A stretch of DNA of 64,000 nt from positions 1 through 64,000 of IMG/VR virus record IMGVR_UViG_3300010413_000015; one strand, 5' to 3'. A program made the position numbers and the translations under genes. Source of the DNA: a virus. The notes below the pieces were generated by a model. That model was not told the DNA's origin. It worked only from the letters and a program-made list of their open reading frames with translations, and ran no database searches. Of this stretch, positions 8,350-60,171 are shown one piece after another. Each line of letters begins with the position of its first letter. Positions within the stretch are counted from its first letter, which is position 1.

Positions 8350-8423
8350 AGGCCAGTAGCTCAATTTGGCAGAGCAACGGTCTCCAAAACCGTAGGTTGC
8401 GGGTTCAAGTCCTGCCTGGCCTG
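8350..8423 (+). tRNA. tRNA-Trp (CCA)
   Basis: AGGCCAG/CTGGCCT acceptor, TAGCTCAA..GG.AGAGC D arm, ACGGT-CTCCAAA-ACCGT anticodon arm, GGTTCAAGTCC T arm. Confidence 0.93.
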
Positions 8424-8460
8424 CTCTACAAATTTCAAACAGAAGCGGAGGGTACTTAGG

Positions 8461-23593: not shown

Positions 23594-24039
23594 AGCGGCA
23601 ACCTCTGCACAATGCGCACTTCAGCAATAACCCATGTGCCCAAGGGGTCGTACTCAAACTGTAGATTCAGGTCCCCTCGTAGTTGGCCTGGCCAGTATCC
23701 GTCATCTCCAAATGAGAGGACCTCAAGGTCTGTGGCCAGCCATGCGTCCATAAGGTCATTGGCGTCCCCGACATAGATGTCTTCCTGGCCATCGTTCATG
23801 GTGGGATATGTCCCGTCTGGGGCCTGCACGATAAGCCTACCTGCCCATTGTTTGAAACCTCGTCTTGTGCCGACAGAACTCAGGAGGCGTCCATCATACA
23901 GGGATATGCCATAGCTAGTTGCTCCCTCGAAGATGGGCCCAGAGAAACCTTCTACCAAAACAGCGTAACACCGCTTCGAGGAGCCACTGTCCCACTTTAG
24001 GAAAAGTCCGCCCCTGCTGGTTGGAAACTCTATTGCCAC
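23590..24039 (-). CDS. distal tail protein-like
   Basis: 149 aa immediately downstream of the tape measure. Confidence 0.5.
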   Translation of the reverse strand: MAIEFPTSRGGLFLKWDSGSSKRCYAVLVEGFSGPIFEGATSYGISLYDGRLLSSVGTRRGFKQWAGRLIVQAPDGTYPTMNDGQEDIYVGDANDLMDAWLATDLEVLSFGDDGYWPGQLRGDLNLQFEYDPLGTWVIAEVRIVQRLPL

Positions 24040-27000
24040 AATCCCCCCCTCATTCTCTGCCTGGAGGCAGTCTTGTTCAGCTCTGCCTCAAACTTCCTCC
24101 ATATCTCGGCCGCCAGTTGTCTCTCGTCCTGCCTCCCTCCTTCAACCGAGATAGAGACGTTCATATTTCCGACGGAAAATCCGCTTGCGGTCAGCCTGCG
24201 GAGTGCCATGTTGGGGACAATGGTCCCATTCTGGTCTGGAACGAAAATCTCTGGTCCCACTTCACCCACCAGGTAACTACTCCCGGCTGTGACATCCCCC
24301 CCACCAGCCAGGCTGTTCCCGCTTCCACCTCCATCCCCTTGAGACTGGAACATACGGTTCAGGCGGTTCTCGATGCGGTCCAGAAGGTTCTGCCAGGCCT
24401 TGTCAAGGCTCGAATCCCTCTTGACGCTGCTCTCGAAGTGACCAATTAGGGTGTCCCACTTGCCCCAGAGGTCTCCGTCTTTCGAGAAATCGCTGAGCTG
24501 CTGCCTCAGGAAGGCAGCATAGGCATCTTGGGTCAGGTCCTGCAACCGCTGGTGCTCTATCTGGCCAGGGAAGACCACTTCCTCGAAGTACTTCTGTTCC
24601 TGGGTCATTTGGGCCAGGCGATACATCATATCGTCCTCAGCAATCTCTTGCTGTTTCGCGGCAATCGCCTGCTGCATCGCCGCCATAGCCTCTGCTTCTC
24701 CCATTTGCTCCTGGAGGTGCTTCATTTGCAGTGCAAACGACTCATCCATGTGCTTCTTGGAAAGGTCGAAGTTCTCCTGCATGTGTCGCTTCTGGAGCTC
24801 ATAGTTCTGCGTCATGTGCTCCTTCTGCATCTCAAACTGCTCGGTCTCTAGACGCTTGATATCTTCGTAGTGTGATTCCTGGTCTTTGAATGCCTGCGCC
24901 TGTTGGGCCCACAGCTTCTCCTGTCGCCCTTCCTCAACACCCCTACGCTTCTCAGAGACACCATAGTCCTCTTCCATACGTCCCCGCTGGCGGAGAAGCT
25001 CCTGCTTCTCGCGCCCGGAGGCGAAGCGAATGGCCCGGTTGATATCTTCCATCCCACGGGTGTACTGCACCCCAGCCTGTTGCCGGTTGAACGCCATATC
25101 TTCACGGCCCCAGCGCTGGCCCTGCATCATCTGTTGCCATTGAACACCGAACTGCCTTCTCTGGAACTCGGTGTTGACACCCCACATTCTCTGGCCTAGG
25201 GCAAAAGACGCTTGCTGTTGGGCATAGCCCTGCTCCAGGCTCTCCGTCCCTTGCTGGAAACCAAGGTTCAGCCGTTCCTGGCCCTGGCGATACTGAAGGC
25301 GAGCGCTCTCCATGGCTCGCTCAATACCGGCCCTCTGCTGTTGCGCTGCCATTGCCGCAGCCGCAGCCTGCATTCCGTACAGCTCTCGGGACTGTTCTAG
25401 CTTCAGTTCCGCTCGCTGGATTTGGCCTATCATGCCCATCTGGTAGGTTCTGCCACCATAGCTAGAGGTTGCCCACTGGCCAGTGCCCATGCGGTATGCC
25501 TGGCTCTGGCGTAGTTGGTTCCAGGACAGCGCCCTTGAAGCAAGCTGGCCTATGCCGTAGATACCACCACCAGGCCCTATCTCGTGTAAGGGCATAGCCC
25601 CCTCCACCAGGGGCATCCCCATAGCACTACGGAACCCACCTACGGCCCCCTGTGCCTCTGCGCCAAAGACCCCTTGGGCCGCACTGTATCCCAGGGCAGA
25701 GCTGGCAAAGTTGGCCATCTCCCCAAACTGGGCGTACTCGAAGGGAGTCATCTGTCCAGAGGCTAGTGCTGCCTGCAGGCCCTGCTCAAACTGCCCGGCT
25801 ACTGCCCCGGCCATGCCAAACCCTCTGGCCACAGCTCCTTGGCCCATTACAGACTGGGCCCATACCTGGCGAGCTGCAGGAGAAACGCCACGGGCTGCCA
25901 TTGCCTGAACCCGGCCCTGCAGGGCTCGGGCATTTCCGCCGAGGTACTGGTAGATTTGACCCCCAAGGCCGGCCGCAGCCTCATATTGGGCCATTCCCTG
26001 AGCGCTTTGCCATGGAGCATTGGCCATGAACCCTATGGCTTCTGGACTTCCTGCCGCAAAGCCATACTCTTGTGCCGCACCAACGCCAATGGCTGCCTGT
26101 TCCCTCCGAAGCATCTGCTCTGGGGTTACACCCGGAGGGGTATAGATGACTCGCCCGTCAGGGAGCTCAACCATTTGGCCTTCAAGTTCCTGCTGTAGCC
26201 CCTGATAGTATCGGGCCGCAGCCTCTGGACCAAGGCCGCGCATGTCTGCGAATGTGCGATACTGGCTGGCAATCTGTGCCGTGGCTCCACCAACTGCTGC
26301 GGTCTGAGGACCAAGTGTTTGCCCGATTCTCTGAGCTACTGCACTACCAGGTGTATACCCCATGGCAGAGACAATGGGCTGCATGCCATACCGGGCCTCT
26401 TGAAGAGCTGCAAGCTGGGTGGTTGTGACCCCACCAGCAAGCTGGCCCATGTACTGCTGTAGCATTTGTCCTGATACTCCAACTCCTATCTGTTGGAGTT
26501 GTCCTGCAACCCCTGAGGCCATGAGGAAGTTCTGTTGCCCGGCTGCTGTTGTTGGGATGTAGGGAGACAGGGCCCACATCCCTGCGCCCGTCCCGATCCC
26601 CAGATACTGGCTTACTTGCTTTAGGGTAGAGGCCATCCCGGGAAGCTGCCCACTAATGGCTGCTGGCCCGAGCTGCTTGGCCAGCTCATCTACTCTTCCT
26701 TCGTACACGGCCTTTGGCCCGTATCCGAGCTCGGCCAGATAGCTGAAGGTTTCGTACTTCTTTGCTGGGTCTAGACCTGGAATATCCAGGTTTTCGATGT
26801 GGAGGCTGGCCCGGTCAATCTCTATCTGGCCAGACTTCACATACTGCGCAACACCCTCGCGCAGTTGGCCTGCGTAGTCCTTGTCCAGAATCGAGCGCAA
26901 GCCCATGCCAACCCCTGTCCCAAGAGAGAGGTCGCCCTTGGTAGGCGAGCCCCCACCAGCCATGCCCTTGAGCCAGCTAAAGGCACCTCTCTGCGTCTCA

Positions 27001-30000
27001 GGCTCTGTGGCCAGACCGAGAAGCTCCCGGTAGACATTTCCGGGGGCAGCCTGTTCATAGGCCTGCCCAAGGAGAAGCCCCCCGGTCACAACGCCACCTG
27101 CCAGGGCGGCGATTGGGCCCATTCTAGAGCCTATTCCCATCATACCTCGCCCTAGAAGGCTTTCTCCCCCTAGCGTCTTTCCGAATCTGCCGAGCACTGA
27201 CGCGGCAATGCCGGCTTTCGCACCAAACTCGAGTCCCTTGAGAATAGGTCCACCAACTGCACCCAGTCTTTCACCGGCCCCATATGCGCCAGAGGGACCA
27301 CCTAGCGTTGCCAGTATCTCACTGATACCAGCTTGCCCTCGAAGTGTGCCCATACCGAAGCCCTGGGCGAAGGCCTGCTGGCCAGCCTGGGCCTGCATAA
27401 TCCTGCCCATGGGACTATCCATAATGGACTGTGCAGTACCCCCCATCTGTGTAGCAAACCCTATCTGGGCACCAGCAAGCCCCCGTGCCTGTTCCATAGC
27501 ACGGTTCACTGGTCCCCCAAAGATTCGCTCGGCCGCTGTCCAGCGGAAGTATGCACCGCCAAAGGAGAACTCCTGCAGGAGCTGGTCGAGGCCCTGGCCA
27601 AGTGTGCCACGCATGCCCTGTGGTCTCTTGGGAGCCGGCCTGCCCCTTTGTCCACCGGTAGCCTCATAAAGGTCGTACTGGAACTGCAGGGCGTCTCGTG
27701 TTTCCACAGCGCCGATAGTCTCTGTGAGGGCTGGCTCGTTCTCGATCTTCTCCAGTTTCCTGCCAAGACGTTGCATGTTTTGGGTTACTGTCGCAACCAC
27801 ATCTTGGGGGACACCTGCTGCAGTCAGACCCTGTGGACCAACTTTTGCCCATTGCTCCCTAATGTCCTGGGCCTGGCGGAAGGTCTTGGTGAAGGACTGT
27901 GCATCTTTCAGCATCTCCTTCTCGGCCCGAGTCAGGTCTCTCTGTACGGCAATGGTCTCCCTAAGCTCTGGGGTCCACTGCTTCAGATGGTCTGCCACCT
28001 CATCCAGGGTCTTCCTCATCGACCCTGACATCCACAATCCCAACTCCCAGGGCTTCCCGCTTCCGGCTGTCTGCCGGGGGTTCAGGTCACGTTGCTGTTG
28101 CCCCTGAGAGGGCGGTACAATTGGTGCGCCGGGGTCTACACCCGGAGGCACCCAGTTAGGGTCAAAGTTGGGGCCGGGCATCCCCGCCAGGGGGTCTGCC
28201 GGGTCAACTGGTGGCCTGTTGGGAGGCGGGGGAGCACCGGGAGGCGCAGCCACTGTAGGCCTGGCGGCTGCCGGCCGTCGGCCTGCCTGTTGGAGATGTC
28301 TCCTAAGCTGGCCAGGTCGCGTAACTGGGGACTGAGCCATTGCAGGTGCTGCAGTCGCAACCGGAGGCGTAGGCTGTGTGGCTGCTGGTTGAGTCACCTC
28401 AGTTGGTGGTGTAAGATTGGGTTCCGGCCCCATCTCTGGTGGCGCCACAGGGACCCTAGGTGCTCGCTCTGGGTGTGGGCTCTCTGCAACTGGAGGTTCT
28501 GCACCAGGTGTGGCTAGCCAATCTGCCATCCCAGACGCTTCCAGGGCCACTGCTTGTTCCTCAATACTGACCCCTTGTCCGGCCCCCTTCTTCAAAGCAG
28601 TAAGCCTGTCTTGCATCTCTGACTTAAACCTGAGAAGAGTGTCGGCCAAGTCCCGGCCCACGCTCCTGGCCCCAAACTCTCCGTACAGGTTGGCACCGTG
28701 CTTCTCTGCATACCGACTAACGGCTCCTGCCCACTGCCCACCGATTGCCTGTCCAGAGGCGGCCTCCCTTACCCAGTCCTCATGTGTCTGACCAGCCTTC
28801 ATCATTCGGGGAAGAATCTTGTATCGCTGCTCGGGTGCGGAGAATCGCTTGAACATCATCGCAAACTGCTGGGCCTGCTTCTGGTTAGGCCCGGAGAACA
28901 TTGCACCCGCTTCTTCGGGAGACACAACTCCCTGCTGTACAAGCTCGGCAAAAGCGCCGACACTCTCCTTGCGAAGTCCTGCAAGGTTTCGCAAGGTTCC
29001 GGTGCCTACTTTCTCCCATTCCCCGGTGCTGCGCATAAATGCCTTGCCCCAGGTAGTGGTATTCATGAGCGCATGAACACTCATGACGTCCTGGGGGGGG
29101 ATGGCGGGTCTCTGAGTATACCCATAGCTGCGGTTCCAGATAGACTGTACGGCAGACCTGGCTGTTTGGCCTACCTTCCCAGGAATCTGGAGTGCCCTAC
29201 TCATAAGCCTTCGCATGTCCTGGAATCCAGGACCTATTGCATTGTAGAGCTCCCGGTTTTCCTGAACAAGTTCCTCGACCTTGCCCTCATCCATGGTATG
29301 GTAGTCAAGGGCCTTTCTCCTGACAATCTCCATGGCCGCTTGTAGGTCTTGGTCTCCGGGAACCATCTCAGCAGGGAGGCTTCCAGCGCCCTCAGACTGC
29401 ACACGCTTGCGCCCAATCTCACGTACTCGTTCTGGAGAAAGCTCTACACCAGCGGCGTCGTAGAACTTGCTACCTTGCACCTGAGCCCCACCAGTCATCA
29501 GGGCATAGGCAATGTCTGCGTCAAAGTCGCCGCCAGCCATACCCTGTAGGTACTCTGACACTACCATCCGGTTGGGGTCATAACCTAGGCCCTCGATAAG
29601 CTCTCGGGACACAGTAATGCCCTGAGCTGCACGGTCAAAGCTGGACTCTCCCTGAGTGGGGAAGCGAATCATGAAACCTGCTTGCCCGGCCTCACGGTCT
29701 GGCAGGTACATCTCATTGATGCCCAGTGCCTTAGAGCCAAGCACCTTGTACCCCTCCAGGTACCTCCTGCCAGGTGTTACTCCCTGGGCCCGTCGGAGGC
29801 CCTGCTCGGACTCAGAAATCTTGCGTTGCTCCTCCATGACGGTCCTGCGATACTCGACAAACGGCGCCTTCTCCTGATTCAGAAGGGACCGGACCATGCC
29901 AAACTGCCCTCTAAGGTAGCGAGAGACCTCTGTTTGTTCGAGGGCACCTTCTGCTGAGAAGTACTTGCCGGAGCGGAAGGGGGCAGTAAAGAAGCCCTTG

Positions 30001-32099
30001 CCCCATTCGACAAAGTGCTTCCCGTACTTACTGCCCTTTGCCCCCATGATATCGAAGAACTTCCTGGCCACCAGCTCCTGGTCCATACCCTTCTTTGGGT
30101 CCGCTCCCGGAATGACCCTTAGGGATTCAGTAAGCCCCCTCATCCGTTGCACCCCGATGCCGGGTACGTTTGCAAGGTCTCTGATACTCTGGAAGGGCCC
30201 GTGTTGCTCCCGATAGTCAATGATAGACTGTGCCGTTTTTGGGCCAATACCTGCTGCTCTCTGTAGCGCCTTGATATCGGCACGGTTGATGTCCCCAGCC
30301 TCAACCTCGTACTCAGCCTGACCGACAGCCTCCATGAGCGCAGCCTGAAACTCGGGGTCGCTGGCACTGACAACGGGTGCCTGCAGCTCGCGCCGGGAAG
30401 GGCCAGATGCGAGAGTCGCGTTGATGACATCACGATAGGCGCTGCGGGTGCGAGCGCTAGCGCGTTCAAGCCTCCGGGCATACCTTGGATTCGTCGCTCT
30501 AAGGTTCTCCAGGTCCTCGTAGCCCAGGGTCCCAGCCTTTACGTCATACTCCTTCATGAGCTGGGTAAAGTAGTCGCCTACGAGAGCCTGCCGTCTCATA
30601 TTTAGCACGTAACGCCTGGGGTCTGCCTCTCCCGTGACCGGGTTTGTCCAGACCTGCTTCGGTCCCATGGCCGCGCCCATGATGTTGGGCCCGTACTCTG
30701 GGTCCCTGAGATAGTCTTCGTGGTAGACCTCGGGGATGACAATGTCCTGAACCAGGCCAGGAACATTTCTGGCCAGGCGCTGTAGGGGTCGGTCCCCAAG
30801 TTCCGCATAGTTCCTGGGCATGCTCAGGAGGGTGCTGTACCCAAGTTCCCTGGCAATCTGGTTCTTCCTCCGCAGGCCAGCTTGAGACCACTCTGCCTGC
30901 AACATTGAGTAGGTGGCCCCCTGCACGTCCTTCAGGGCAGAGACAAAGTCCAGGTTCATTGGCTGGCCTTGGACATCGGTGATGTTGCTGAGGTCCCTCG
31001 TGCCCATCAGCACCTTCTGGTAGGCCTGTTTTCCGGCGAAGGCTACTTCACTGGCAGGGGCAAACCGTTCCAGAACAAACTTCAGCTCTTCTTCTGTGGC
31101 CTCGCCTTCCTGGTTGGTGGCAGAGGTCCTCCGGGCCACATCCATGACACGGTAGCCCCATTCCCTATCACGAAAACCTGCAAGGCCCTCAGCAAGTTGC
31201 ACATGCTCACCCCGACCCCAGGAAGTGCCTACGGGTACAGGCTGTAGGCCCATGCCCCGCACTGTTCTTACTGTACGCTCTGTAACATTCCCAACACGGG
31301 GGTCCATCAGGCCCATGCCGGCAGGGGCGTGCTCACCACCGATAATGAGGGCGCCCCTTAGGTTCTGGCCCCGCTCCATGCCGTACTGCTCCCCTCCAGC
31401 AGCCAGGCCTGAGGTGACAACTGGCTTGCCACTGAGGAACACTTGCTGGTGGGCACCCAGCATTTGGATGCGCTTCATGAGCTTGCTCGGCTCGAAGGTA
31501 GAGATGAACCTGCCGGCGGCTCGCCCCAGCCAGCTTGACTCTAGGGTGCGCGTTGGGTAACTGAAGGCACCATCCTTGCGATAGATGTGTCCCTCTGGAA
31601 CAATGGGCTGTCCATACTCATCACGTTGTACGGGTACACCCTGAAGTCTGCGCTGCCTGAGCTGGCCAGGGTAGTGTGTCCATTGGGACTCAGACACAGG
31701 AGCATAGGAAATGCGCCGAATCTCCTGCTCGGTCTTGCCTTGCTTTCGGGCCTCTACCCTGGCCAGGTTCTCAAGTTCGGCCAGTCTTTCCTTGTACTGT
31801 GTGTAGTCTGGGGCGACAAAGCGCTCGAGCTCGAGGATTGCCTGTCTTACCCCACCAACTGTAGGTGAGCGAAGGGTAGGAACATACTTGCGAATAGCCT
31901 CCCGTGAGTAGCCATAGTTCATTGCTTGCCACAGGAAGTCTTCGTAGGAAGCAGGGTCACTTTCCCTTGTTCCCTTTGGGCCCTCTCGTCCAGGCCAGTA
32001 GGTCATTGCGTAGGGAGCTTCATCGTCATCCCACCAGTAGTCATCACTGCCGGGGTCCTCTCTGGGTACCCATGGCCCGAACTGTTCCCTATTTGGCAT
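24030..32099 (-). CDS. tape measure protein with N-terminal two-barrel RNA polymerase domain and HhH insert
   Basis: Follows frameshifted chaperone; C-terminal coiled coil and AGGG.V.....YLVGEVGPEIFVP TMP motif; N-terminal RFP (aa ~812) and GGDFDAD (D ~858); ComEA-like HhH at aa ~603-660. Confidence 0.82.
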   Translation of the reverse strand: MPNREQFGPWVPREDPGSDDYWWDDDEAPYAMTYWPGREGPKGTRESDPASYEDFLWQAMNYGYSREAIRKYVPTLRSPTVGGVRQAILELERFVAPDYTQYKERLAELENLARVEARKQGKTEQEIRRISYAPVSESQWTHYPGQLRQRRLQGVPVQRDEYGQPIVPEGHIYRKDGAFSYPTRTLESSWLGRAAGRFISTFEPSKLMKRIQMLGAHQQVFLSGKPVVTSGLAAGGEQYGMERGQNLRGALIIGGEHAPAGMGLMDPRVGNVTERTVRTVRGMGLQPVPVGTSWGRGEHVQLAEGLAGFRDREWGYRVMDVARRTSATNQEGEATEEELKFVLERFAPASEVAFAGKQAYQKVLMGTRDLSNITDVQGQPMNLDFVSALKDVQGATYSMLQAEWSQAGLRRKNQIARELGYSTLLSMPRNYAELGDRPLQRLARNVPGLVQDIVIPEVYHEDYLRDPEYGPNIMGAAMGPKQVWTNPVTGEADPRRYVLNMRRQALVGDYFTQLMKEYDVKAGTLGYEDLENLRATNPRYARRLERASARTRSAYRDVINATLASGPSRRELQAPVVSASDPEFQAALMEAVGQAEYEVEAGDINRADIKALQRAAGIGPKTAQSIIDYREQHGPFQSIRDLANVPGIGVQRMRGLTESLRVIPGADPKKGMDQELVARKFFDIMGAKGSKYGKHFVEWGKGFFTAPFRSGKYFSAEGALEQTEVSRYLRGQFGMVRSLLNQEKAPFVEYRRTVMEEQRKISESEQGLRRAQGVTPGRRYLEGYKVLGSKALGINEMYLPDREAGQAGFMIRFPTQGESSFDRAAQGITVSRELIEGLGYDPNRMVVSEYLQGMAGGDFDADIAYALMTGGAQVQGSKFYDAAGVELSPERVREIGRKRVQSEGAGSLPAEMVPGDQDLQAAMEIVRRKALDYHTMDEGKVEELVQENRELYNAIGPGFQDMRRLMSRALQIPGKVGQTARSAVQSIWNRSYGYTQRPAIPPQDVMSVHALMNTTTWGKAFMRSTGEWEKVGTGTLRNLAGLRKESVGAFAELVQQGVVSPEEAGAMFSGPNQKQAQQFAMMFKRFSAPEQRYKILPRMMKAGQTHEDWVREAASGQAIGGQWAGAVSRYAEKHGANLYGEFGARSVGRDLADTLLRFKSEMQDRLTALKKGAGQGVSIEEQAVALEASGMADWLATPGAEPPVAESPHPERAPRVPVAPPEMGPEPNLTPPTEVTQPAATQPTPPVATAAPAMAQSPVTRPGQLRRHLQQAGRRPAAARPTVAAPPGAPPPPNRPPVDPADPLAGMPGPNFDPNWVPPGVDPGAPIVPPSQGQQQRDLNPRQTAGSGKPWELGLWMSGSMRKTLDEVADHLKQWTPELRETIAVQRDLTRAEKEMLKDAQSFTKTFRQAQDIREQWAKVGPQGLTAAGVPQDVVATVTQNMQRLGRKLEKIENEPALTETIGAVETRDALQFQYDLYEATGGQRGRPAPKRPQGMRGTLGQGLDQLLQEFSFGGAYFRWTAAERIFGGPVNRAMEQARGLAGAQIGFATQMGGTAQSIMDSPMGRIMQAQAGQQAFAQGFGMGTLRGQAGISEILATLGGPSGAYGAGERLGAVGGPILKGLEFGAKAGIAASVLGRFGKTLGGESLLGRGMMGIGSRMGPIAALAGGVVTGGLLLGQAYEQAAPGNVYRELLGLATEPETQRGAFSWLKGMAGGGSPTKGDLSLGTGVGMGLRSILDKDYAGQLREGVAQYVKSGQIEIDRASLHIENLDIPGLDPAKKYETFSYLAELGYGPKAVYEGRVDELAKQLGPAAISGQLPGMASTLKQVSQYLGIGTGAGMWALSPYIPTTAAGQQNFLMASGVAGQLQQIGVGVSGQMLQQYMGQLAGGVTTTQLAALQEARYGMQPIVSAMGYTPGSAVAQRIGQTLGPQTAAVGGATAQIASQYRTFADMRGLGPEAAARYYQGLQQELEGQMVELPDGRVIYTPPGVTPEQMLRREQAAIGVGAAQEYGFAAGSPEAIGFMANAPWQSAQGMAQYEAAAGLGGQIYQYLGGNARALQGRVQAMAARGVSPAARQVWAQSVMGQGAVARGFGMAGAVAGQFEQGLQAALASGQMTPFEYAQFGEMANFASSALGYSAAQGVFGAEAQGAVGGFRSAMGMPLVEGAMPLHEIGPGGGIYGIGQLASRALSWNQLRQSQAYRMGTGQWATSSYGGRTYQMGMIGQIQRAELKLEQSRELYGMQAAAAAMAAQQQRAGIERAMESARLQYRQGQERLNLGFQQGTESLEQGYAQQQASFALGQRMWGVNTEFQRRQFGVQWQQMMQGQRWGREDMAFNRQQAGVQYTRGMEDINRAIRFASGREKQELLRQRGRMEEDYGVSEKRRGVEEGRQEKLWAQQAQAFKDQESHYEDIKRLETEQFEMQKEHMTQNYELQKRHMQENFDLSKKHMDESFALQMKHLQEQMGEAEAMAAMQQAIAAKQQEIAEDDMMYRLAQMTQEQKYFEEVVFPGQIEHQRLQDLTQDAYAAFLRQQLSDFSKDGDLWGKWDTLIGHFESSVKRDSSLDKAWQNLLDRIENRLNRMFQSQGDGGGSGNSLAGGGDVTAGSSYLVGEVGPEIFVPDQNGTIVPNMALRRLTASGFSVGNMNVSISVEGGRQDERQLAAEIWRKFEAELNKTASRQRMRGGLWQ
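24166..24178. repeat. dispersed palindrome copy 5
   Basis: TTTCCGACGGAAA inside the TMP 3' end (FSVGN). Confidence 0.95.
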
Positions 32100-32409
32100 C
32101 TTGCTCTCCAGTTAGAGTGTCAAGCTTTCGCTGGTTCTCATCTAGGATGGCATCGTACAGCCTGCCAGCCAAGTCTACCATGTCCCAGGCCCACTCGGGC
32201 TGGTCCAGCAGCCCACCCGCCACCAAGAGGTGACCTTCCCAACGCTGAAGCTCAAACCATAGTGCCAGCCACTGTGGGGGGGAAGGGGCAACCGGGCGCT
32301 TCTGCAACCCGCCAAACCGCCTCCACGTGACCAGGTCTGCTGCGTACTCCTTGCTCTGTTCAACATAGGAGCGCACCTCTTGTTCAAGCTTCAGCTTTAA
32401 TCTTCCCCC
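32089..32409 (-). CDS. tail assembly chaperone, -1 frameshift extension (gpT-like)
   Basis: Open -1 frame (GGRLKLKLEQ...AGGLLDQPEW) begins at slippery GGGGGAA (32403-32409) and ends overlapping the TMP start. Confidence 0.75.
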   Translation of the reverse strand, partial: GGRLKLKLEQEVRSYVEQSKEYAADLVTWRRFGGLQKRPVAPSPPQWLALWFELQRWEGHLLVAGGLLDQPEWAWDMVDLAGRLYDAILDENQRKLDTLTGEQDAK

Positions 32410-32858
32410 TCGGCGGGGTTCCTCCAGTCGAAAGGCGGATGCCACGCAATGAGCTTCTCGACAATCTCCTCTGCCAGCTCTTCCGGAAAGTCTGGACGGT
32501 ACCAGACCCCATAGAAGCCGGTGCGAACCCTGTCGTTGAAGGGCCCATTTAACTTGCGGCACGTCTTGCCCGGAACGAACACTGGGGTCTCGTTGTCGGG
32601 CTCTGTGATGTTGCACTCGATGAGGGTCATGGCCACCATTTCTGACTCCAACACAGTAAGAGGAACACGTTCCCTCTGTGTCACACGGCCCCGTTCCTCA
32701 GTGCTCCACACCAATTCACTACGGGCCTGCATAGTAGCCAGATTCTCTCCCTCAAGCCGAGAGGGCCGTTGAAACTTGACGTAGGTGCCCCCCGTTTCAT
32801 CCCACCTGGTAAGCGGGATGGCCTCACTTGTAACTACTCCCTCCAATGGCCTTGCCAT
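32397..32858 (-). CDS. tail assembly chaperone (gpG-like)
   Basis: Between tail tube and TMP; GGAGG RBS before ATG 32858; ends GAG GGG GAA GAT TAA. Confidence 0.75.
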   Translation of the reverse strand: MARPLEGVVTSEAIPLTRWDETGGTYVKFQRPSRLEGENLATMQARSELVWSTEERGRVTQRERVPLTVLESEMVAMTLIECNITEPDNETPVFVPGKTCRKLNGPFNDRVRTGFYGVWYRPDFPEELAEEIVEKLIAWHPPFDWRNPAEGED

Positions 32859-32953
32859 TTCTGCTACCTCCCATGTGCGTCTGATTGATTCCCACAGGGG
32901 GGCTTCGTCAAGGACAGTGCCAGGCCTCTGCCCCCCTGTGTGGCTGATAGTTT

Positions 32954-32966
32954 TTTCCGACGGAAA
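32954..32966. repeat. dispersed palindrome copy 6
   Basis: TTTCCGACGGAAA just after the tail tube stop; an 11-bp stem hairpin lies next to it (32893-32940). Confidence 0.95.
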
Positions 32967-32971
32967 CCGGA

Positions 32972-34003
32972 CTACGTTGGCCAATCGTACCCGCTCGTCC
33001 CATTTTGCAGGCGCAGATACCAGTCGGCCCCAGCATCAGCATCCGAGACCGTGCCAGTCATCCGCATCTGGACCAGGCTCGCGCCACGAAGGCCAACGGG
33101 CTCGCAAGTCCAGTCGATGGACCCAGCATAGAACCGGAGCTCATAGGGGGTCGTTCCCGTGACGTTGGTTGCAGACTGCACTGCCACGTCGATACTGGAG
33201 TTGTACACTACCGGACTCCAAGCTGCGGCATTGTAGTGCATGCTTTGGTATAGGTCGGGCTCGTCCCACAGGGCCTGGAACTGCATGGTAATCTGGCGGC
33301 CAAGGACCGGGAAGTCATACGGATAGTAAGACCCACCGACCAGGACCTCCCGCAGGTCTGGCATGATGTTGGTCATATCCAGAACGATGGCGGTTGAGAC
33401 TTCGTTGGGTGTTCCATCTGGAAGCTCGAACACACCCTTGCACGAGATGGGAACTGAGTCCTCATTCTTGGCAGAGAAACTCCACCCTGACCCATCGGGG
33501 TTGGTGGGAACTCGGCCCAAGAAGTCGGCACGTAGGCTGGTAAACTCGCCAGGGGCAAGGTTGAACTGCAGCCTTGCGACCTTGAGGTCTTGGAACTGCT
33601 CGTACAGATGGGTGGTCGTGCCAGGGACCTTCCGGCGGCCAGACAGATACTTCTGCGGAGCTGTCTCATCAAGGCCACCGGACGGGAACACGTGCTGATA
33701 AACGGAAGCGACCGGCACGTCGCTTACGCTAGAAACTGAACCGGCAAAGGCGTACAGCAACCACCCCAGTTGGTCGTCCAGGGGCGGAGGTAGCACCAGG
33801 CCACCCTCAACCCACGCAGCGGTCTTGATTTGACCACCGGGCAGCAACGTCCCACCAACCAGGTTTCCAACACCACGATACATCTGACCTGGTGACAGGT
33901 CAACCACGTTGGCCTTGAACCCATGGAAGGTAGTCGCTGCCGTCCCGCGTGCAGTCTGGGGGCCTAGCCAGAACCGGCCGAGTGAACCGGACTGAAGGCT
34001 CAT
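32972..34003 (-). CDS. major tail tube protein
   Basis: 343 aa; QTARGTAAT, LGWLLYAFAG, YQHVF and terminal LQNGTSGY patterns; position; GGAGG RBS. Confidence 0.75.
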   Translation of the reverse strand: MSLQSGSLGRFWLGPQTARGTAATTFHGFKANVVDLSPGQMYRGVGNLVGGTLLPGGQIKTAAWVEGGLVLPPPLDDQLGWLLYAFAGSVSSVSDVPVASVYQHVFPSGGLDETAPQKYLSGRRKVPGTTTHLYEQFQDLKVARLQFNLAPGEFTSLRADFLGRVPTNPDGSGWSFSAKNEDSVPISCKGVFELPDGTPNEVSTAIVLDMTNIMPDLREVLVGGSYYPYDFPVLGRQITMQFQALWDEPDLYQSMHYNAAAWSPVVYNSSIDVAVQSATNVTGTTPYELRFYAGSIDWTCEPVGLRGASLVQMRMTGTVSDADAGADWYLRLQNGTSGYDWPT

Positions 34004-35190
34004 CTTTTCCTCCTGTTGTGAATTTCCCTGTAAGCGTTCCACCAGAGGGACCAGGTCTGGTCTATGGACCGATTGGTCCTTACCCAACTCTGTCCCTTCC
34101 TTAGCAAGCGCTCACGATAGGGCTTGTCTGTGACCAGTTTGGCGATTGCGTCGCACCACGCGCCCACCTCGTAGTGGGGGACGGTCAGCCCCCGCTTGTT
34201 CTTCCCTGTAACCCGGTTGTAGTAGAAGATATCTGAAGTGACAGGCACTCCACCTGCCGCAAGGCCCTCAATGGCCTTGATGGCAGACTTTCCCAGGTTG
34301 AAGTTGTCATCTGGTCGAACCGGGCAAAGGATGATGTCACCTTGCGCTACAACCTCAGCGTACTGATGGTAAGGTACTGGCTCGTTGTAGTGAACCCTGT
34401 CTGGGAACTGGTCCCTGAGAGGGCTCAGATACTCGGGTTCGTAGGCCCCAATGAGAAGGTGTACTTCCTTATGGTTCTGGAGCACCTTTGGCAGTACACT
34501 TTCCATGATTCTCCAGTCCGTCTCATGAGTTGGGCTTCCCGTTAGGGCCACGACTACCGCATCCTGTGGCCAGATGTCCCACCGACTGTGCCCTTGCCAC
34601 TCGTCCCAATTGACTACATTGGGCAGGATGTACACAGGCACGCCAGGAGCAAACTTCTGGTACAGGCTCCGTAGATATTCAGTGGTCACTGTAACCGCGC
34701 TTACCTTGGCCATCAGCTTGTGAAGAAGGTCGTATTGGTCGTACTTCAGGTCTCTAGAGTTGCTGAAGTAGTCATCGTCATACTCGAGTACAACAGATTG
34801 CTTGGTTCTAAGGATATCCACCAGGTCGATCAGGTGAGACTCCCTGGCCAGTTTGATTCCCAGGGACTGTTCCACCTGGTCAAGCATAGGCTCCAGCTCT
34901 TCCAGGGAAGGTGTCTGGTCTCCTGTTTCGTTCTCGGTTGCGCCATAGGGAATAGGCCGGTGTCTTGGCAGCAGCAACATGTCGTACCTTGTTGGCTTGG
35001 CTCGCACGTTGGGGTCTACCGCCGCTTCCCTGGCCTTGTCTATGGGCATCCAATCCAGAAAGGTGCCCGGCACCCTCCTCCGGATCTCCTCGAAGGGAAT
35101 CCGGAAGCGGTAGTGCTCGCAGCCACCCATGCGCATGTCTGTGCGCAGGTGCATAGCTAGAACTGTTGGATGTTCTACGTTACCAGGCAT
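34000..35190 (-). CDS. glycosyltransferase (GT-B/GT4-like)
   Basis: GCEHYR...P, EYDDD, VTVTT..L, ILPN, GSPTH, FNLGKSAIKAIE motifs. Confidence 0.85.
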   Translation of the reverse strand: MPGNVEHPTVLAMHLRTDMRMGGCEHYRFRIPFEEIRRRVPGTFLDWMPIDKAREAAVDPNVRAKPTRYDMLLLPRHRPIPYGATENETGDQTPSLEELEPMLDQVEQSLGIKLARESHLIDLVDILRTKQSVVLEYDDDYFSNSRDLKYDQYDLLHKLMAKVSAVTVTTEYLRSLYQKFAPGVPVYILPNVVNWDEWQGHSRWDIWPQDAVVVALTGSPTHETDWRIMESVLPKVLQNHKEVHLLIGAYEPEYLSPLRDQFPDRVHYNEPVPYHQYAEVVAQGDIILCPVRPDDNFNLGKSAIKAIEGLAAGGVPVTSDIFYYNRVTGKNKRGLTVPHYEVGAWCDAIAKLVTDKPYRERLLRKGQSWVRTNRSIDQTWSLWWNAYREIHNRRKR

Positions 35191-46538: not shown

Positions 46539-47603
46539 CTATGTGAAGAGAAGCGCCCAGTTGACAATGCCGGCAGCATAAGCTGCCAGGATTTTGTCAA
46601 ACTCGCCTGGTACAAAGCTGTCACTGCCATCTAGGATATTCAGCATGGCTCGTCCTAGCCGGTGGGCCTGGTCGGCCACAGTGCCAGGACCGACCTCCCC
46701 CTTGGCCTCATCAACGAGTCTAACCAAGTAGGGCTGGACTAGGTTGGTGAGATGCTCAGAAAGCATCTCCTTGTGCATGTCGCCTTCCTTGACGTGGTGT
46801 ACAAGGGGGGCACCTACCGTAGCAACCATGCCCCTTATGTCCATGATGGTCTTGAGGATGTACATGCTCCACACATCATCATGCCGGCGGACACGGAACC
46901 CGGAAGGGGTGAAGTAGTCGGGGGGCTGCCAGAATGCTGGAACCAGGGAGGCAACCATTTGCACGTTCATGATGGACAGCGGCAACTTCTGTCCATAGGC
47001 CAATGCCACGTACTCTTGGGAAAGCTTTCGGTCGGCGGTAGCCTCGTCTCCGTTTAACTTGTCGATGCCATTGATGTCGGCTGTGCCAGTCCACAGCCCC
47101 TCGTTGAATGAGGGGGCTACAATCTTCTGAAGGCCCTTGTAGGCCTCCTCGCCACGGTACTCATAGGGATACCCTCGTGCCCACATCCTCTTCTCACCGA
47201 GCTGTCCCAGTGGGTTGTACCAGCCGGACAGTGTGTAAAACGTGTCAGCTGCTACTTCCCTGCCTATGGGGATTTTGTCTATGAAGTCGGGGGTGACTCG
47301 AGTATCGCAATCATCGTCCAAGAGGATGATGATATCATGCTTCTCCTTGGCTGCGTAGTACAAGCCGAATGCCTTACACGAGGGGTTGCGTCGTGCAATC
47401 CACATGCCTGCATTTGGCAAGTATGCCTCCTGGTCGCTATGGGTGAATAGCTTCATGTTCTTTGGCATGGGCCCCCTCTCCGCCATGCCATTCGAGTCAT
47501 CCACCACAATGATTTCAGCGACTCTGTCCAGCAATGGGTCAAGATACTCAACCGGAAATGCCCTCACGCTGGGAATCACCACACAGTACGTAGGGTCCCT
47601 CAT
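46539..47603 (-). CDS. GT75 / reversibly glycosylated polypeptide-like (UDP-sugar mutase-like) protein
   Basis: VVIPS.R, C..FG, LDDDC, RGYPYEYR, GLW.G..D..G, MNV, R.DDVW, GAPLVHH motifs. Confidence 0.75.
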   Translation of the reverse strand: MRDPTYCVVIPSVRAFPVEYLDPLLDRVAEIIVVDDSNGMAERGPMPKNMKLFTHSDQEAYLPNAGMWIARRNPSCKAFGLYYAAKEKHDIIILLDDDCDTRVTPDFIDKIPIGREVAADTFYTLSGWYNPLGQLGEKRMWARGYPYEYRGEEAYKGLQKIVAPSFNEGLWTGTADINGIDKLNGDEATADRKLSQEYVALAYGQKLPLSIMNVQMVASLVPAFWQPPDYFTPSGFRVRRHDDVWSMYILKTIMDIRGMVATVGAPLVHHVKEGDMHKEMLSEHLTNLVQPYLVRLVDEAKGEVGPGTVADQAHRLGRAMLNILDGSDSFVPGEFDKILAAYAAGIVNWALLFT

Positions 47604-48298
47604 TGTCTCGCGCATCCTTCCCTCCTTGTCCATAGTGGGGCCTTAAACTGGACTTCGTAGTAAAGCTCCATGTCTGCCTCGTTCAATGCCAGAATCCTCT
47701 TCTGGAGGTCCCGGTTCCCAACAAGCTCTCGCAGCCTGTCCGTGTATGTTGGTGATGGTGAAAGGTTGGTCCTGGGTAGTACGAAGGTCGGCCAGTGCAG
47801 CTTGTTTGCCAGCATGCAGATCCCCTGCTCCAGGAACTCGTAGGAGATTGCAGCGTCTACATCTTCTAGGTTGCCCACCATCTCTGTCTGGATGTTCTGC
47901 CTGGGTCTCTGCTCAATGAAGTCATCGACTGTCTCAAAGTTCACCATGTAGGGATGCGACTTCTCCCAGAGGTACCACGAGAAGATGAGAGACATTGGGT
48001 GCCTGACAATAGTCACTACAGGCATGTTGTCAACCAGGTTCTTTGGATAGAGAAATAGTGGGGTGTGCCCGTGGTAAGCAGGCATGGGCACGAACTCTTC
48101 CAAGAGACGGGCCCTGTGCCAGGCGGCCAGAAACGCCGGCCGGTCAGTCCAATACCTGGAGTCCTGGTCACGGACGTAGATTCCCATAAGACTCTTTTCG
48201 GGGCCAGGAAAGTACCCAATGTTCTCTGCCCCGTACACCTGGTTCATGACTTGTTTAAGGGTAGTCCCCCCAGTTCTAGGAATGTGAATGTGAATCAT
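47600..48298 (-). CDS. sulfotransferase family protein
   Basis: HIPRTGGTTL (5'-PSB loop), T.VRHP....SWY (3'-PB), N..D.ELY. Confidence 0.85.
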   Translation of the reverse strand: MIHIHIPRTGGTTLKQVMNQVYGAENIGYFPGPEKSLMGIYVRDQDSRYWTDRPAFLAAWHRARLLEEFVPMPAYHGHTPLFLYPKNLVDNMPVVTIVRHPMSLIFSWYLWEKSHPYMVNFETVDDFIEQRPRQNIQTEMVGNLEDVDAAISYEFLEQGICMLANKLHWPTFVLPRTNLSPSPTYTDRLRELVGNRDLQKRILALNEADMELYYEVQFKAPLWTRREGCARQ

Positions 48299-48764
48299 TC
48301 TTCTGCCTCACACACAGGAACGCCAGTGTTTCCTGGTTATGTGTCCATGGCCTGTCGAACTGTATGCAGGTGAGCCGAGACTTGGACAGGTAATTTGCCA
48401 TGATTGGTATATTGAATCCCGTCTTGTGGAACTCGCCCTCGTGCTCCTGATTGCCGAAAATGATGTCCAGCCACCAGTCGCTGCTTCCCATTTCTAGCCA
48501 CCTGGTGACACACCATTCCAGACTCGGGACACGGATATCTGCGAAGCCGTCCGGATGAAGAACTCGGGCAATCTCCTTGAGGGCCGGAACCACGCAGGCC
48601 TTAGGAAGATGTTCCAAGACATGTGAGCAGTATAGGTCTTCCACAGACCCGCTGAGGAGGGGAAGCCGCAGCAAGTCTGCGCGGACGTCCCCTCCTACAA
48701 AGCGGTCTATCCCGAAGTAGCCTTGTAGCTTGTTCCTGCCGCACCCAAGGTCAACTTTTATCAC
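48276..48764 (-). CDS. class I SAM-dependent methyltransferase
   Basis: DLGCG, GID, SHVLEH, RVL.P.G...I.VP. Confidence 0.85.
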   Translation of the reverse strand: MIKVDLGCGRNKLQGYFGIDRFVGGDVRADLLRLPLLSGSVEDLYCSHVLEHLPKACVVPALKEIARVLHPDGFADIRVPSLEWCVTRWLEMGSSDWWLDIIFGNQEHEGEFHKTGFNIPIMANYLSKSRLTCIQFDRPWTHNQETLAFLCVRQKNDSHSHS

Positions 48765-48960
48765 TGGCACCCTCCACAGGCAACATGCTATCCGGGCTCC
48801 AGGCGCTAGAATCCATTGGCACCCAAGAATCATCCCCACCAATGGTTATTGTGTACCCTGGCTTCGCTATGTACCTTGGGACCGATTCTTCTAGCAATCG
48901 GTTCAGCTTCTTGAGCTCCCGCAGAATGTCTTCCAGAATCTGGTGTTCTAGTCTAGCCAT
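48751..48960 (-). CDS. hypothetical protein
   Basis: 69 aa, overlap-coupled on both sides. Confidence 0.45.
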   Translation of the reverse strand: MARLEHQILEDILRELKKLNRLLEESVPRYIAKPGYTITIGGDDSWVPMDSSAWSPDSMLPVEGASDKS

Positions 48961-50401
48961 CTTTTACCACCGTCCCTCCCAGAATCATGATCTGGGCATC
49001 TGCCGGGGGTGGCCCCGCTTCTACCGGGCTTGACCCATAGCTCATCTGGTAGAACCAGTCTAGGTTTGTCCACCGGTCCCCCATGAACAGTTGGTCAAGT
49101 TCCTCCAGGGTCAGCATGTACAGGTCCCACGCAGTCCCGGGGGTGGCCTCTTTCTGTGGGGTGGAGAAGACAAAGTTTCCGCCAGGCTTGAGTACCCGGT
49201 ACACCTCGTTTAGGAACGCTTCCTTGTCTTTGATGTGCTCCAGGACCTCGAAACACAGCACTTGGTCAACGGTGTTGTCCCCCACAATCAGCATCTTGGT
49301 TGCATCGCTGGTTGCGAAGGTAACATTCGATGCCTCGTAGAACTTCTTGGCATGCTCGATGCTTTCCTCATCGATGTCTACACCAATGTACTCCTTGGCG
49401 TTGACCACAACGGCAGCACCATACCCGGTGCCACAGCCAATGTCCAGAACGACATCGTCATGGGTAAAGTTGGCGGCCCACTCGTATCGCTGAACGTGGT
49501 CACGGAGGATTCCACCGGTCCCACCACCCTCTGCACGCTCCCGAGGGCCATGGTTGTAGATAGGATACAGGCCCCCATGCTGGCGCATGGCCTGCACGCT
49601 GGAGTAGTCACGGCCGGCTATCGCCTTCATAGCCTCTTCCATATTTCTGGGGCTCTCTCCGTGCCATTGATGGTACACCATTAGGTTTCCAGAGGGGGCC
49701 GGGCTTATAGGGCTCTTGACGATGATGGTCGAGATCCCCCCAATGCGCCTGCGGTCCAGGAAGTCCATGTCCACACTGCCCCACACGTCAAACTCTCGAA
49801 AACCACCCAGCCAGCGCCACTTGTCCATCTTCATGGCCCAGAAGACCTCGGAGTCCCAAGTGTTGCGCTTCTCCTGGTTGTTGTTGGTGTAGTCGATTCC
49901 CTTCACCACACCATCAGCCCAGTTCTCCATGTAGAAGCCATCCATGGTCCTCAGATTGTGCAGGTCCCTCTTCCAGGCCGGCATGGGCCCCTGAGGCAGC
50001 CAGTAGGGGATAGCGGTGGCCCAGGAGCCCGGGTTGGCCATGATGGTCTCGTACATAAGCTCCAGCGCATCAGGGGGAACCATAATCTCCGGGTGGGTGG
50101 CTACCAGAACCTGGCCGGTGGCATGGGTTGAGACCGCGTTGCGCACCTTGCACCCATCCCTCCACTTGCCCGGTTCCTTCGGAAGGTTCAGGTCCTCAGG
50201 GGCAGAGAAGTACCGCAGGGGCAACCCCGCCTCCTGCCACTTCTCTACAACCTCTCGGGTATTATCCTGGCTGGCATCGTCGGCAATCAGGTACTCCCAT
50301 TCATCAAAGGGGAGCGTCTGTTTTGAGTACGTGTACAGGGCATTGTCTAGCATCTCGGCCCTGTTAAACGTTGCGGAAATCACGGAAATCTTCATCATCA
50401 A
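48953..50401 (-). CDS. GT2 glycosyltransferase fused to a SAM methyltransferase
   Basis: ISATFNRA, ADDASQD, GGF.E...WG..D.DF..R; C-terminal VLDIGCGTGYG, FEVLEH, RVLKPGG. Confidence 0.88.
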   Translation of the reverse strand: MMMKISVISATFNRAEMLDNALYTYSKQTLPFDEWEYLIADDASQDNTREVVEKWQEAGLPLRYFSAPEDLNLPKEPGKWRDGCKVRNAVSTHATGQVLVATHPEIMVPPDALELMYETIMANPGSWATAIPYWLPQGPMPAWKRDLHNLRTMDGFYMENWADGVVKGIDYTNNNQEKRNTWDSEVFWAMKMDKWRWLGGFREFDVWGSVDMDFLDRRRIGGISTIIVKSPISPAPSGNLMVYHQWHGESPRNMEEAMKAIAGRDYSSVQAMRQHGGLYPIYNHGPRERAEGGGTGGILRDHVQRYEWAANFTHDDVVLDIGCGTGYGAAVVVNAKEYIGVDIDEESIEHAKKFYEASNVTFATSDATKMLIVGDNTVDQVLCFEVLEHIKDKEAFLNEVYRVLKPGGNFVFSTPQKEATPGTAWDLYMLTLEELDQLFMGDRWTNLDWFYQMSYGSSPVEAGPPPADAQIMILGGTVVKDG

Positions 50402-56247: not shown

Positions 56248-56305
56248 TGCAACCATAGATGCGTAGACGTAGACAATGCCTGTGCCTGCCTGCAGTTGCG
56301 GGAGT

Positions 56306-56364
56306 GCGCATCGCTTGACACTCCATCATAGGGGGAGTACTTGATGGAGTGTCAAGTTATGCGC
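56306..56364. repeat. long inverted repeat at the strand-divergence point
   Basis: CTTGACACTCCATCA (56314-28) / TGATGGAGTGTCAAG (56342-56), extended by GCGCAT/ATGCGC. Confidence 0.9.
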
Positions 56365-56437
56365 TCGCACATTGAGAGGGGGGTCACACTTTGGAAAGCC
56401 GTATTAGTAGTATAGGGTGAGTCCGGGACTGTTGCTT

Positions 56438-57170: not shown

Positions 57171-57182
57171 TACAACTGAATA
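57171..57182 (+). promoter_or_regulatory. intergenic motif TACARCYRAATA copy 1
   Basis: TACAACTGAATA. Confidence 0.5.
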
Positions 57183-57302
57183 CCTCGCAGAGGGCACGCA
57201 TGCGCCTTAATTGCCATGCGTGTAATGCGCCAGCGCCAGTCCCAAGCCTGGGCACAGTACCCTTCAGAGGACAAGAGCCTCAGGGGTGCGGAAAGGGCCA
57301 CC

Positions 57303-57706: not shown

Positions 57707-57718
57707 TACAACTGAATA
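57707..57718 (+). promoter_or_regulatory. intergenic motif TACARCYRAATA copy 2
   Basis: TACAACTGAATA. Confidence 0.5.
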
Positions 57719-59493: not shown

Positions 59494-59505
59494 TACAACC
59501 GAATA
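59494..59505 (+). promoter_or_regulatory. intergenic motif TACARCYRAATA copy 3
   Basis: TACAACCGAATA followed by CAGCCCCCCGGCCAG. Confidence 0.5.
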
Positions 59506-60159: not shown

Positions 60160-60171
60160 TACAGCTAAATA
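60160..60171 (+). promoter_or_regulatory. intergenic motif TACARCYRAATA copy 4
   Basis: TACAGCTAAATA followed by CATGGCCCCCCGCCCAG. Confidence 0.45.

Follow-up and report, generated by a model that had tools for sequence, protein, structure and literature searches.

A predicted two-barrel RNA polymerase joined to the putative tape measure protein of an uncultured long-tailed phage

Can the protein that serves as the ruler of a phage tail also be the enzyme that transcribes the first genes of the phage? This question is raised by the DNA of an uncultured phage, of which we analysed bases 1-64000 (the window) of the 74,951-bp IMG/VR virus record IMGVR_UViG_3300010413_000015, rated 86% complete. 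Positions 24030-32099 of the minus strand hold an open reading frame (ORF) of 2,689 amino acids (aa), which a preliminary description, made from the letters of the DNA, had taken for a tape measure protein with an RNA polymerase (RNAP) at its N-terminus. We consider it very likely that this protein combines a two-barrel polymerase fold with a tape measure; the N-terminal RNAP is supported by conservation among relatives, by an AlphaFold2 (AF2) model and by structural matches to two-barrel RNAPs. The combined reading, in which activity and injection are inferred for a two-barrel polymerase-tape measure fusion, is in our opinion probable. Towards the narrower claim of an active, injected transcriptase we lean with some reserve.

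Reading frame and predicted fold of the fusion protein

The frame of the fusion gene is uninterrupted over the whole length of 2,689 aa, as had been described. A GGAG sequence is positioned 6 nt 5' of the ATG. The gene overlaps with both adjacent ORFs, at its start with the stop of the preceding one and at its stop with the start of the following one, indicating that it belongs to a translationally coupled operon. Near-identical DNA was found in sequencing runs from several studies, labelled as marine sediment, soil and other metagenomes. Contigs from four of the runs (three studies) cover the fusion ORF at an identity of at least 99% and with zero indels, and one contig from another sample of the probable source study spans the linker between the two halves of the protein without any gap (27914-29251). 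Among the runs with matching DNA there was no RNA run, which says nothing about expression. A search of genome contigs with two NCBI-sourced relatives gave no match and thus no clue to the host.

All fold results given here rest on one AF2 model of residues 1-1190, which was built with a 31-row alignment and reached a predicted local distance difference test score (pLDDT) of 81.3 and a predicted template modelling score (pTM) of 0.78. Low confidence was restricted to residues 1-48, a few loops and the part from 1125 onward (pLDDT <50), leaving aa 49-1124 (28728-31955) as the confidently folded polymerase region. A single-sequence AF2 prediction of the same residues (pLDDT 38) was discarded.

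Compared with the PDB by Foldseek, the model gave 149 matches at E≤1e-3, the best with E 1.4e-5, and the matches listed were all RNAP beta or second-largest subunits (probability 0.97-1.00). The structure comparison with VIA-align comprised a scan of 48,161 representative chains and a second look over the Foldseek top 1,000. Thereby, QDE-1 was the top match (Z 9.9, 388 residues aligned, model 134-959; Z 10.3 in the second look). Further matches were gp62 of phage P74-26 (Z 9.6, root mean square deviation (rmsd) 3.8; gp62/gp64 Z 9.9-10.0 in the second look), the second-largest subunits of vaccinia virus, RNA polymerases I and IV (Pol I, Pol IV) and African swine fever virus (ASFV) with Z 8.3-9.2, and gp96 of phage P23-45 (Z 7.6 and 7.1, model 141-883 against gp96 327-793). 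The second look yielded 139 chains with Z≥8; the 50 of these 139 that were listed are all RNA polymerases.

The matches can be assigned to the two halves of such an enzyme. Residues 139-522 (30534-31685) align with beta or second-largest subunits (Pol I, Pol II, vaccinia, ASFV) at Z 8.3-10.2 and would form the beta-type half, containing the first barrel and a flap-like element at 272-346 which resembles beta-flap domains (Z 5.5). Residues 773-910 (29370-29783) are predicted to be the beta-prime-type catalytic double-psi beta-barrel (DPBB). They match Pol I A 434-632 (Z 6.8, 104 aligned, rmsd 3.0), archaeal A' (Z 6.8), Mycobacterium tuberculosis beta-prime 419-574 (Z 6.5), Pol V (Z 5.8, 19% identity) and designed DPBB proteins (Z 5.0-5.2). 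The motif DFDAD, around which the preliminary description had expected a double-psi barrel, lies within this segment.

Among predicted viral structures (BFVD), the best match was the uncharacterised protein A0A075BUT7 of Microcystis phage MaMV-DC (E 1.3e-7, template modelling score 0.41 on the target). A0A8S5SD80 of Siphoviridae sp. ctnpt50, annotated as 'minor tail protein' (E 6.4e-7), and an uncharacterised Acinetobacter phage protein were among the best, too, and poxvirus and giant-virus polymerase subunits came next. At the sequence level, no similarity to A0A075BUT7 or A0A8S5SD80 was detected in the GenBank phage collection.

Since the matches are uniform, cover both barrels and the flap, and place an invariant Asp triad in the beta-prime-type barrel, the assignment is secure at the level of fold: in the model, residues ~50-1125 take the shape of a single-chain two-barrel RNA polymerase of the QDE-1/YonO/gp64/gp96 kind.

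A further domain is inserted between the barrels. Pfam HHH_3 at aa 603-653 (30141-30293; E 5.2e-16, 58.9 bits against a cut-off of 27) is the sole Pfam domain of the fusion protein and points to a ComEA-type helix-hairpin-helix (HhH)2 DNA-binding module. A sequence match to ComEA in the PDB (E 1.3e-8) and the superposition of residues 604-662 on the ComEA structure (Z 7.0, rmsd 2.5, 46% identity) agree with this. Modules of the ComEA type are known from DNA-uptake proteins. An HhH module between the barrels occurs in this protein and is absent at that place in 26 relatives, one of which (P0003) has an HhH module after the polymerase part, at 1469-1526.

Motifs, relatives and known polymerases

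The sequence motifs on which the preliminary description had built its proposal are present. MIRFP corresponds to aa 810-814 (29658-29672), and the DxDxD motif follows at the distance that had been noted, with 46 aa from R812 to D858 and 43 residues between P814 and D858. GGDFDAD occupies aa 856-862 (29514-29534), slightly more than the stretch 29514-29528 formerly assigned to it, which covers DFDAD (858-862). Within these motifs, R812-F-P814 (29658-29666) would be the [RK]xP element that precedes the metal loop, and D858-F-D860-A-D862 (29514-29528) the putative Mg-binding loop itself. The fusion protein thereby satisfies the filter [RK]xPx{20,100}DxDxD, by which Chaban et al. call viral two-barrel RNAPs (Supplementary Data 4). 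The full pattern also arose in 227 of 5,000 shuffles of the fusion protein (4.5%), and DxDxD in 606 of 5,000 (12%); the motif by itself is weak evidence. It goes beyond chance because it is near-invariant in relatives of 25-35% identity.

Conservation in homologs had been named beforehand as a test of the proposal. In the family alignment, D858, D860 and D862 are kept in 26-27 of 27 relatives and P814 in 28 of 28. Every long relative has DxDxD at the equivalent place, a few with one extra copy elsewhere, in the variants DFDGD, DYDGD, DADGD, DTDGD, DVDGD, DLDGD, DYDAD, DTDAD, DLDAD and DTDSD. Position 4 is Gly in 20 relatives, Ala in 5 and Ser in 1. DFDAD is therefore a normal variant within the family, given the five relatives with Ala. 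Two further motifs are conserved to a similar extent, namely K209-R210 (27 of 28 relatives) and the family-invariant Q996-R997-P998 (29106-29114; 24-25 of 25).

For the beta-type barrel, the preliminary description had guessed that the two lysines are supplied by GKQAYQK, which is found at the expected position, aa 356-362 (31014-31034). This is plausible. K362 (26 of 26 relatives) and K390 (30930-30932; 26 of 27) form the better conserved pair, K357 being kept in 22 of 26. K357 and K362 come straight after the beta-flap-like element, and the two conserved lysines of bacterial beta also directly follow the flap element. We regard K357, K362 and K390 as plausible candidates for basic active-site residues in the modelled fold.

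The relatives stem from an exhaustive HMMER search of 1.84 billion representatives (50%-identity library), which returned, alongside many irrelevant HhH matches, about 26 true relatives with 25-35% identity, most of them 2,100-3,200 aa long; a word-indexed homolog search gave 1 and 4 matches. The C-terminal half is homologous in 23 of the 26. This indicates that the fusion is a conserved architecture and not a one-off, and the fused family has at least 23 members. In 50,697 GenBank phage records, no relative of the fusion protein was detected by tblastn: the whole protein gave HhH matches only, and each polymerase half gave nothing at E≤0.1. The ORF in the terminase position had no match among GenBank phages in such a search, too. 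Among viral contigs, two related loci were found with the family alignment as query and zero with the single protein. The related phage G001 (IMGVR_UViG_3300009081_000001) is complete, with 87,059 bp and a 103-bp terminal repeat. It encodes a homologous 2,638-aa fusion with DADGD, in which the HhH module follows the polymerase part instead of being placed inside it.

For phage P23-45, Chaban et al. (2024, PMC10770324; PDB 8H2M, 8H2N) showed that the tape measure gp96, which is 5,002 aa long, begins with a two-barrel polymerase of ~1,200 residues, in which DFDGD occupies 779-783. The polymerase part was detected in virions by Western blot and transcribes the pre-early genes, including the gene of the non-virion polymerase gp64; the link between tape measure and polymerase was called a previously unsuspected association by its authors (PMC10770324). 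In the searchable literature we found no description of a tape-measure-fused polymerase beyond P23-45 and its close Thermus-phage relatives.

Like gp96 (P23-45; also P74-26, G20c and TSP4), the protein described here would start with a two-barrel polymerase of ~1,100-1,200 aa that is made of a single chain and continues into the tape measure. RxP...DxDxD stands at a similar place (DFDGD 779-783 in gp96, DFDAD 858-862 here), and the genome carries a second, free-standing polymerase gene, paralleling the pair of virion and non-virion RNAPs of P23-45. The fusion protein differs from gp96 in its length (2,689 aa versus 5,002 aa), in the ComEA-type HhH module between the barrels and in that no metallopeptidase domain was found by Pfam. 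Furthermore, the second polymerase is a member of the Pfam RdRP family, unlike that of P23-45, and the DNA comes from marine sediment and soil metagenomes, whereas the Thermus phages are from hot springs.

Sequence homology to gp96 was not detected: phmmer and profile searches gave no match to 8H2M/8H2N at E≤10. With hhalign against gp96 1-1200, residues 803-864 aligned with 732-785 and nothing else did (E 0.19, probability 0.3%). This alignment pairs FMIRFP with FTFRNP and GGDFDAD with GVDFDGD, i.e. R812-F-P814 with RNP and the putative metal loop with DFDGD 779-783. Judged by its sequence, the protein is thus gp96-like in architecture and not a member of the gp96 sequence family, and at this level the apparently different lineage suggested by the preliminary description holds. 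Two-barrel families share no significant sequence similarity outside the DxDxD region (PMC10770324).

Other two-barrel enzymes resemble the model as well. P23-45 gp64 and P74-26 gp62 (PDB 8F72, 8F5M) match both barrels (Z 9.6-10.0, rmsd 3.8-3.9, 276-281 aligned, model 139-998); unlike the fusion protein they are free-standing enzymes of ~600 aa which stay outside virions, and the identity in the structural alignment is 13%. The highest Z values, 9.4-10.3, were obtained with QDE-1 and RDR2 (PDB 7Y7P, 5FSW, 7W82, 7ROZ; 355-388 aligned across 104-1001). These belong to the same major two-barrel clade as the phage single-subunit enzymes (PMC10770324), but they are RNA-templated, non-virion enzymes of eukaryotic RNA silencing, with 10-14% identity.

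An injected polymerase within a very large virion protein is also a feature of the crAss-like phage phi14:2 (gp66) and of the N4-like virion RNAPs, for which a coupling of DNA entry with first transcription was proposed (PMC10770324). In contrast to the phage studied here, crAss-like and N4-like phages are short-tailed and have no tape measure. The N4 virion RNAP is a T7-like enzyme and not of the two-barrel type. crAss phi14:2 gp66 and YonO were not among the structural matches listed, which says nothing either way.

Tail genes, second polymerase gene and neighbouring elements

The two parts of the fusion protein are separated by a Pro/Ala-rich linker at aa ~1197-1340 (28080-28511), which is covered by the bridging contig mentioned above. 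The linker had been predicted at ~28100-28510, and the composition (28% Pro and 14% Ala in residues 1201-1350) as well as the loss of AF2 confidence from residue 1125 bear this out. The putative tape-measure part, aa ~1341-2689 (24033-28079), is rich in Gly, Ala and Gln from 1500 to 2250 and in Gln, Glu and Arg from 2250 to 2550, and includes a long stretch of coiled-coil-like character. It contains the one hydrophobic, membrane-span-like segment of the whole protein, aa 1659-1681 (27057-27125; maximum of 1.62 in a 19-residue Kyte-Doolittle window). For the C-terminus, which had been described as tape-measure-like, the evidence consists of weak matches of the conserved tail-protein-like domain at aa 2566-2680 (24060-24404): the tape measure family phrog_5062 (E 0.006), phrog_30701 (E 4.1e-6) and the phage tail protein NF047706 (E 8.5e-5), the last with 21 bits being below its cut-off of 480.

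The tape measure position of the gene was confirmed by its neighbours. Two slots upstream lies the gene of the tail tube protein (32972-34087, minus strand; Pfam Phage_tube_2, E 5.9e-12, 46 bits against a cut-off of 27). The interval 32089-32984 of the minus strand, between the tube and fusion genes, contains ORF 32397-32984 and, overlapping it in the -1 frame, ORF 32089-32616; tail assembly chaperone pairs are usually encoded in this slot. Since the tube gene and the ORFs in chaperone position precede it, the giant ORF occupies the tape-measure slot of a long-tailed phage. As to the frameshifted chaperone of the preliminary description, the overlap and the -1 relation of the two ORFs were found, but they have no family match and their overlap contains no canonical in-phase slippery heptamer (X XXY YYZ).

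Downstream of the fusion gene, ORFs of 149, 1159, 183 and 1648 aa follow, which have no family matches; further upstream there are a portal-like gene and a cluster of sugar-modifying enzymes. The latter are encoded within the structural operon at 46539-50401 and 34000-35190 (minus strand) and comprise an RGP-like protein (Pfam RGP, E 3.9e-12), a methyltransferase fusion and a glycosyltransferase. The glycosyltransferase adjoins the tail tube gene, and this pairing is kept in G001. The order of glycosyltransferase, tube gene, ORF in chaperone position and fusion gene is common to both phages, and the tube protein of G001 is 56% identical to the tube protein encoded beside this fusion.

A scan of all ORFs of the genome for DxDxD led to a 732-aa ORF at 61719-63917 (plus strand) with TRYPIRF...GGDFDGD. 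It belongs to the Pfam family RdRP (PF05183, E 9.5e-10, 38.2 bits against a cut-off of 23.8), in agreement with a six-frame search of the genome, and presumably encodes a second, free-standing single-chain RNA polymerase. Its gene is part of a plus-strand block which diverges from the structural operon at ~56.2-56.4 kb. The second polymerase had no match among GenBank phages or PDB sequences. When the fusion family was compared with it by hhalign, the catalytic stretch was aligned and nothing else, and the alignment was not significant; an origin by duplication is thereby neither supported nor excluded.

Some further elements were observed in the plus-strand block. The AT-rich 12-mer TACAACTGAATA and its variants are present in four plus-strand copies (57171-57182, 57707-57718, 59494-59505 and 60160-60171) in gaps that separate the small ORFs ahead of the second polymerase gene, and four copies were reached in 0 of 100 shuffles. 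A fifth copy with one mismatch is located at genome position 64958, after the ORF following the second polymerase gene. Three of the copies precede a stretch with a shared GCCYTAATTGC-like sequence. From their sequence and placement these sites are candidate promoters or terminators of a phage polymerase. A type-P5 twister ribozyme (Rfam RF02684, 57.3 bits against a gathering score of 37.6) was found right after the first copy, at 57186-57251 on the plus strand. In the gap between the divergent minus-strand structural and plus-strand blocks, a long near-perfect inverted repeat, TTGACACTCCATCA ... TGATGGAGTGTCAA, extends over 56290-56365. It carries TTGACA on both strands and may, by its sequence, be a bidirectional promoter or operator. 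Moreover, a tRNA-Trp gene (CCA anticodon) lies in a plus-strand block at 8350-8424.

Proposed delivery of the polymerase, alternatives and significance

Judged by the example of P23-45, the phage probably delivers a transcription enzyme of its own into the cell by injection. The fusion protein would be built into the tail as a ruler, as is gp96, with its C-terminal part setting the tail length. A tape measure spans ~1.5 Å per residue, so that ~1,350 residues correspond to a tail near 200 nm. At infection, the fusion protein would be expelled ahead of the DNA, and its hydrophobic segment may help to form a channel through the envelope. The N-terminal polymerase would then exit last and meet the leading DNA end while being held by the membrane segment of the tape measure, and the HhH module could grip duplex DNA non-specifically. 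In this way, the first-entering genes would be transcribed without the host RNA polymerase. They may include the gene of the second polymerase (61719-63917), which could then take over early transcription.

A more far-reaching version of this idea seems doubtful to us. It holds that the protein represents a second lineage, unrelated in sequence and of independent origin, which is widespread among phages of sediment and soil. The ComEA clamp would enable an injected polymerase, anchored in the membrane, to take hold of the genome as it enters and to draw it in by transcribing, so that entry, first transcription and hand-over would be one coupled machine.

Several points weigh against an injected two-barrel polymerase on a tape measure. 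Packaging and injection are drawn from the analogy with P23-45, and activity is predicted for a phage that is uncultured. A folded domain of ~120 kDa cannot fit into the lumen of a tail tube. The packaging of the polymerase poses the same problem in P23-45 (PMC10770324). With regard to the fold, a Z of ~10 on a model of 1,190 residues is moderate, values of 7-8 being common for unrelated models, and none of the solved RNAPs was significantly similar to the protein in sequence or profile searches (phmmer and family profile against the PDB gave HhH matches and coiled-coil noise). Within the [RK]xP element, R812 is found in 18 of 27 relatives and replaced by Gly in 7. The identity of the tape measure derives from gene position, composition and sub-threshold matches. 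Finally, searches of G001 with the RdRP family, with the protein and for motif-bearing ORFs detected no second polymerase, an absence that is not proven thereby. A cascade of two polymerases would accordingly be a feature of this phage and not of the family, as G001 shows no detectable second enzyme.

Among the alternatives, the protein might contain a true two-barrel polymerase which is not delivered by the virion. It would be cut off at the linker before or during tail assembly and act as a middle or late polymerase inside the cell, the fusion serving co-expression with the tail genes. The long disordered Pro-rich linker (pLDDT <50 from residue 1125) is a plausible target for proteases, several phages process their tape measures by proteolysis, and a folded domain of this size is too large for the tail-tube lumen. 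We nevertheless consider this unlikely, because the gene is translationally coupled in a late structural operon, and an enzyme made last could hardly serve the phage without being taken along to the next cell. Moreover, the polymerase part was found in virions (Western blot) in P23-45, the one tested case, and 23 of the 26 distant relatives retain the fusion. Distinctly unlikely is a role in another process, in which the polymerase fold and its metal site would make replication primers, copy RNA as QDE-1 does, or serve mainly as a DNA-binding pilot that assists in drawing the genome in. A fold does not reveal template or product, the best structural matches, QDE-1 and plant RDR2, are RNA-dependent enzymes, and the inserted ComEA-type module is of a kind known from DNA uptake. 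Against this stands that the tested members of the phage clade, gp96 and gp64, are DNA-dependent transcriptases, as are YonO and crAss gp66, and the full conservation of the Asp triad and of the lysines speaks against a purely structural role.

The resemblance to polymerases could also be spurious, with the DFDAD barrel being a cell-wall-degrading double-psi barrel (RlpA-, MltA- or expansin-like) and DxDxD a chance or unrelated metal-binding motif. Muralytic domains are common in tape measures, small non-polymerase DPBBs (kiwellin, chitosanase, the Cdc48 N domain) reached Z 4.7-5.9, and the motif pattern arises in 4.5% of shuffles, as stated above. The polymerase matches, in contrast, reach Z 8-10 over ~800 residues with two barrels, flap and connector, and the listed matches among the 149 obtained with Foldseek at E≤1e-3 are all RNAP subunits. 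As no lysozyme, peptidase or transglycosylase family matched the fusion protein either, we judge this explanation to be very improbable. An assembly or gene-calling artefact joining a separate polymerase gene to a tape-measure gene is hardly credible. It would have to be considered for a metagenome assembly in which low-complexity sequence joins both halves, but the same two-part build at 2,100-3,200 aa is present in relatives from many assemblies, and the indel-free contigs with at least 99% identity come from other samples and studies, one of them spanning the linker.

The fusion of a two-barrel polymerase to a tape measure, a kind of protein described for a single phage group, is thus found in a family without detectable similarity to gp96. 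Should the enzyme be active, long-tailed phages would repeatedly have adopted the strategy of starting transcription independently of the host with an injected tail protein, and this would not be an oddity of thermophiles. If this holds true, polymerases would be concealed in many of the giant 'tape measures' now recorded as hypothetical or minor tail proteins. The coupling of DNA entry and first transcription could be approached through the internal ComEA module and through the second polymerase with its variable occurrence.

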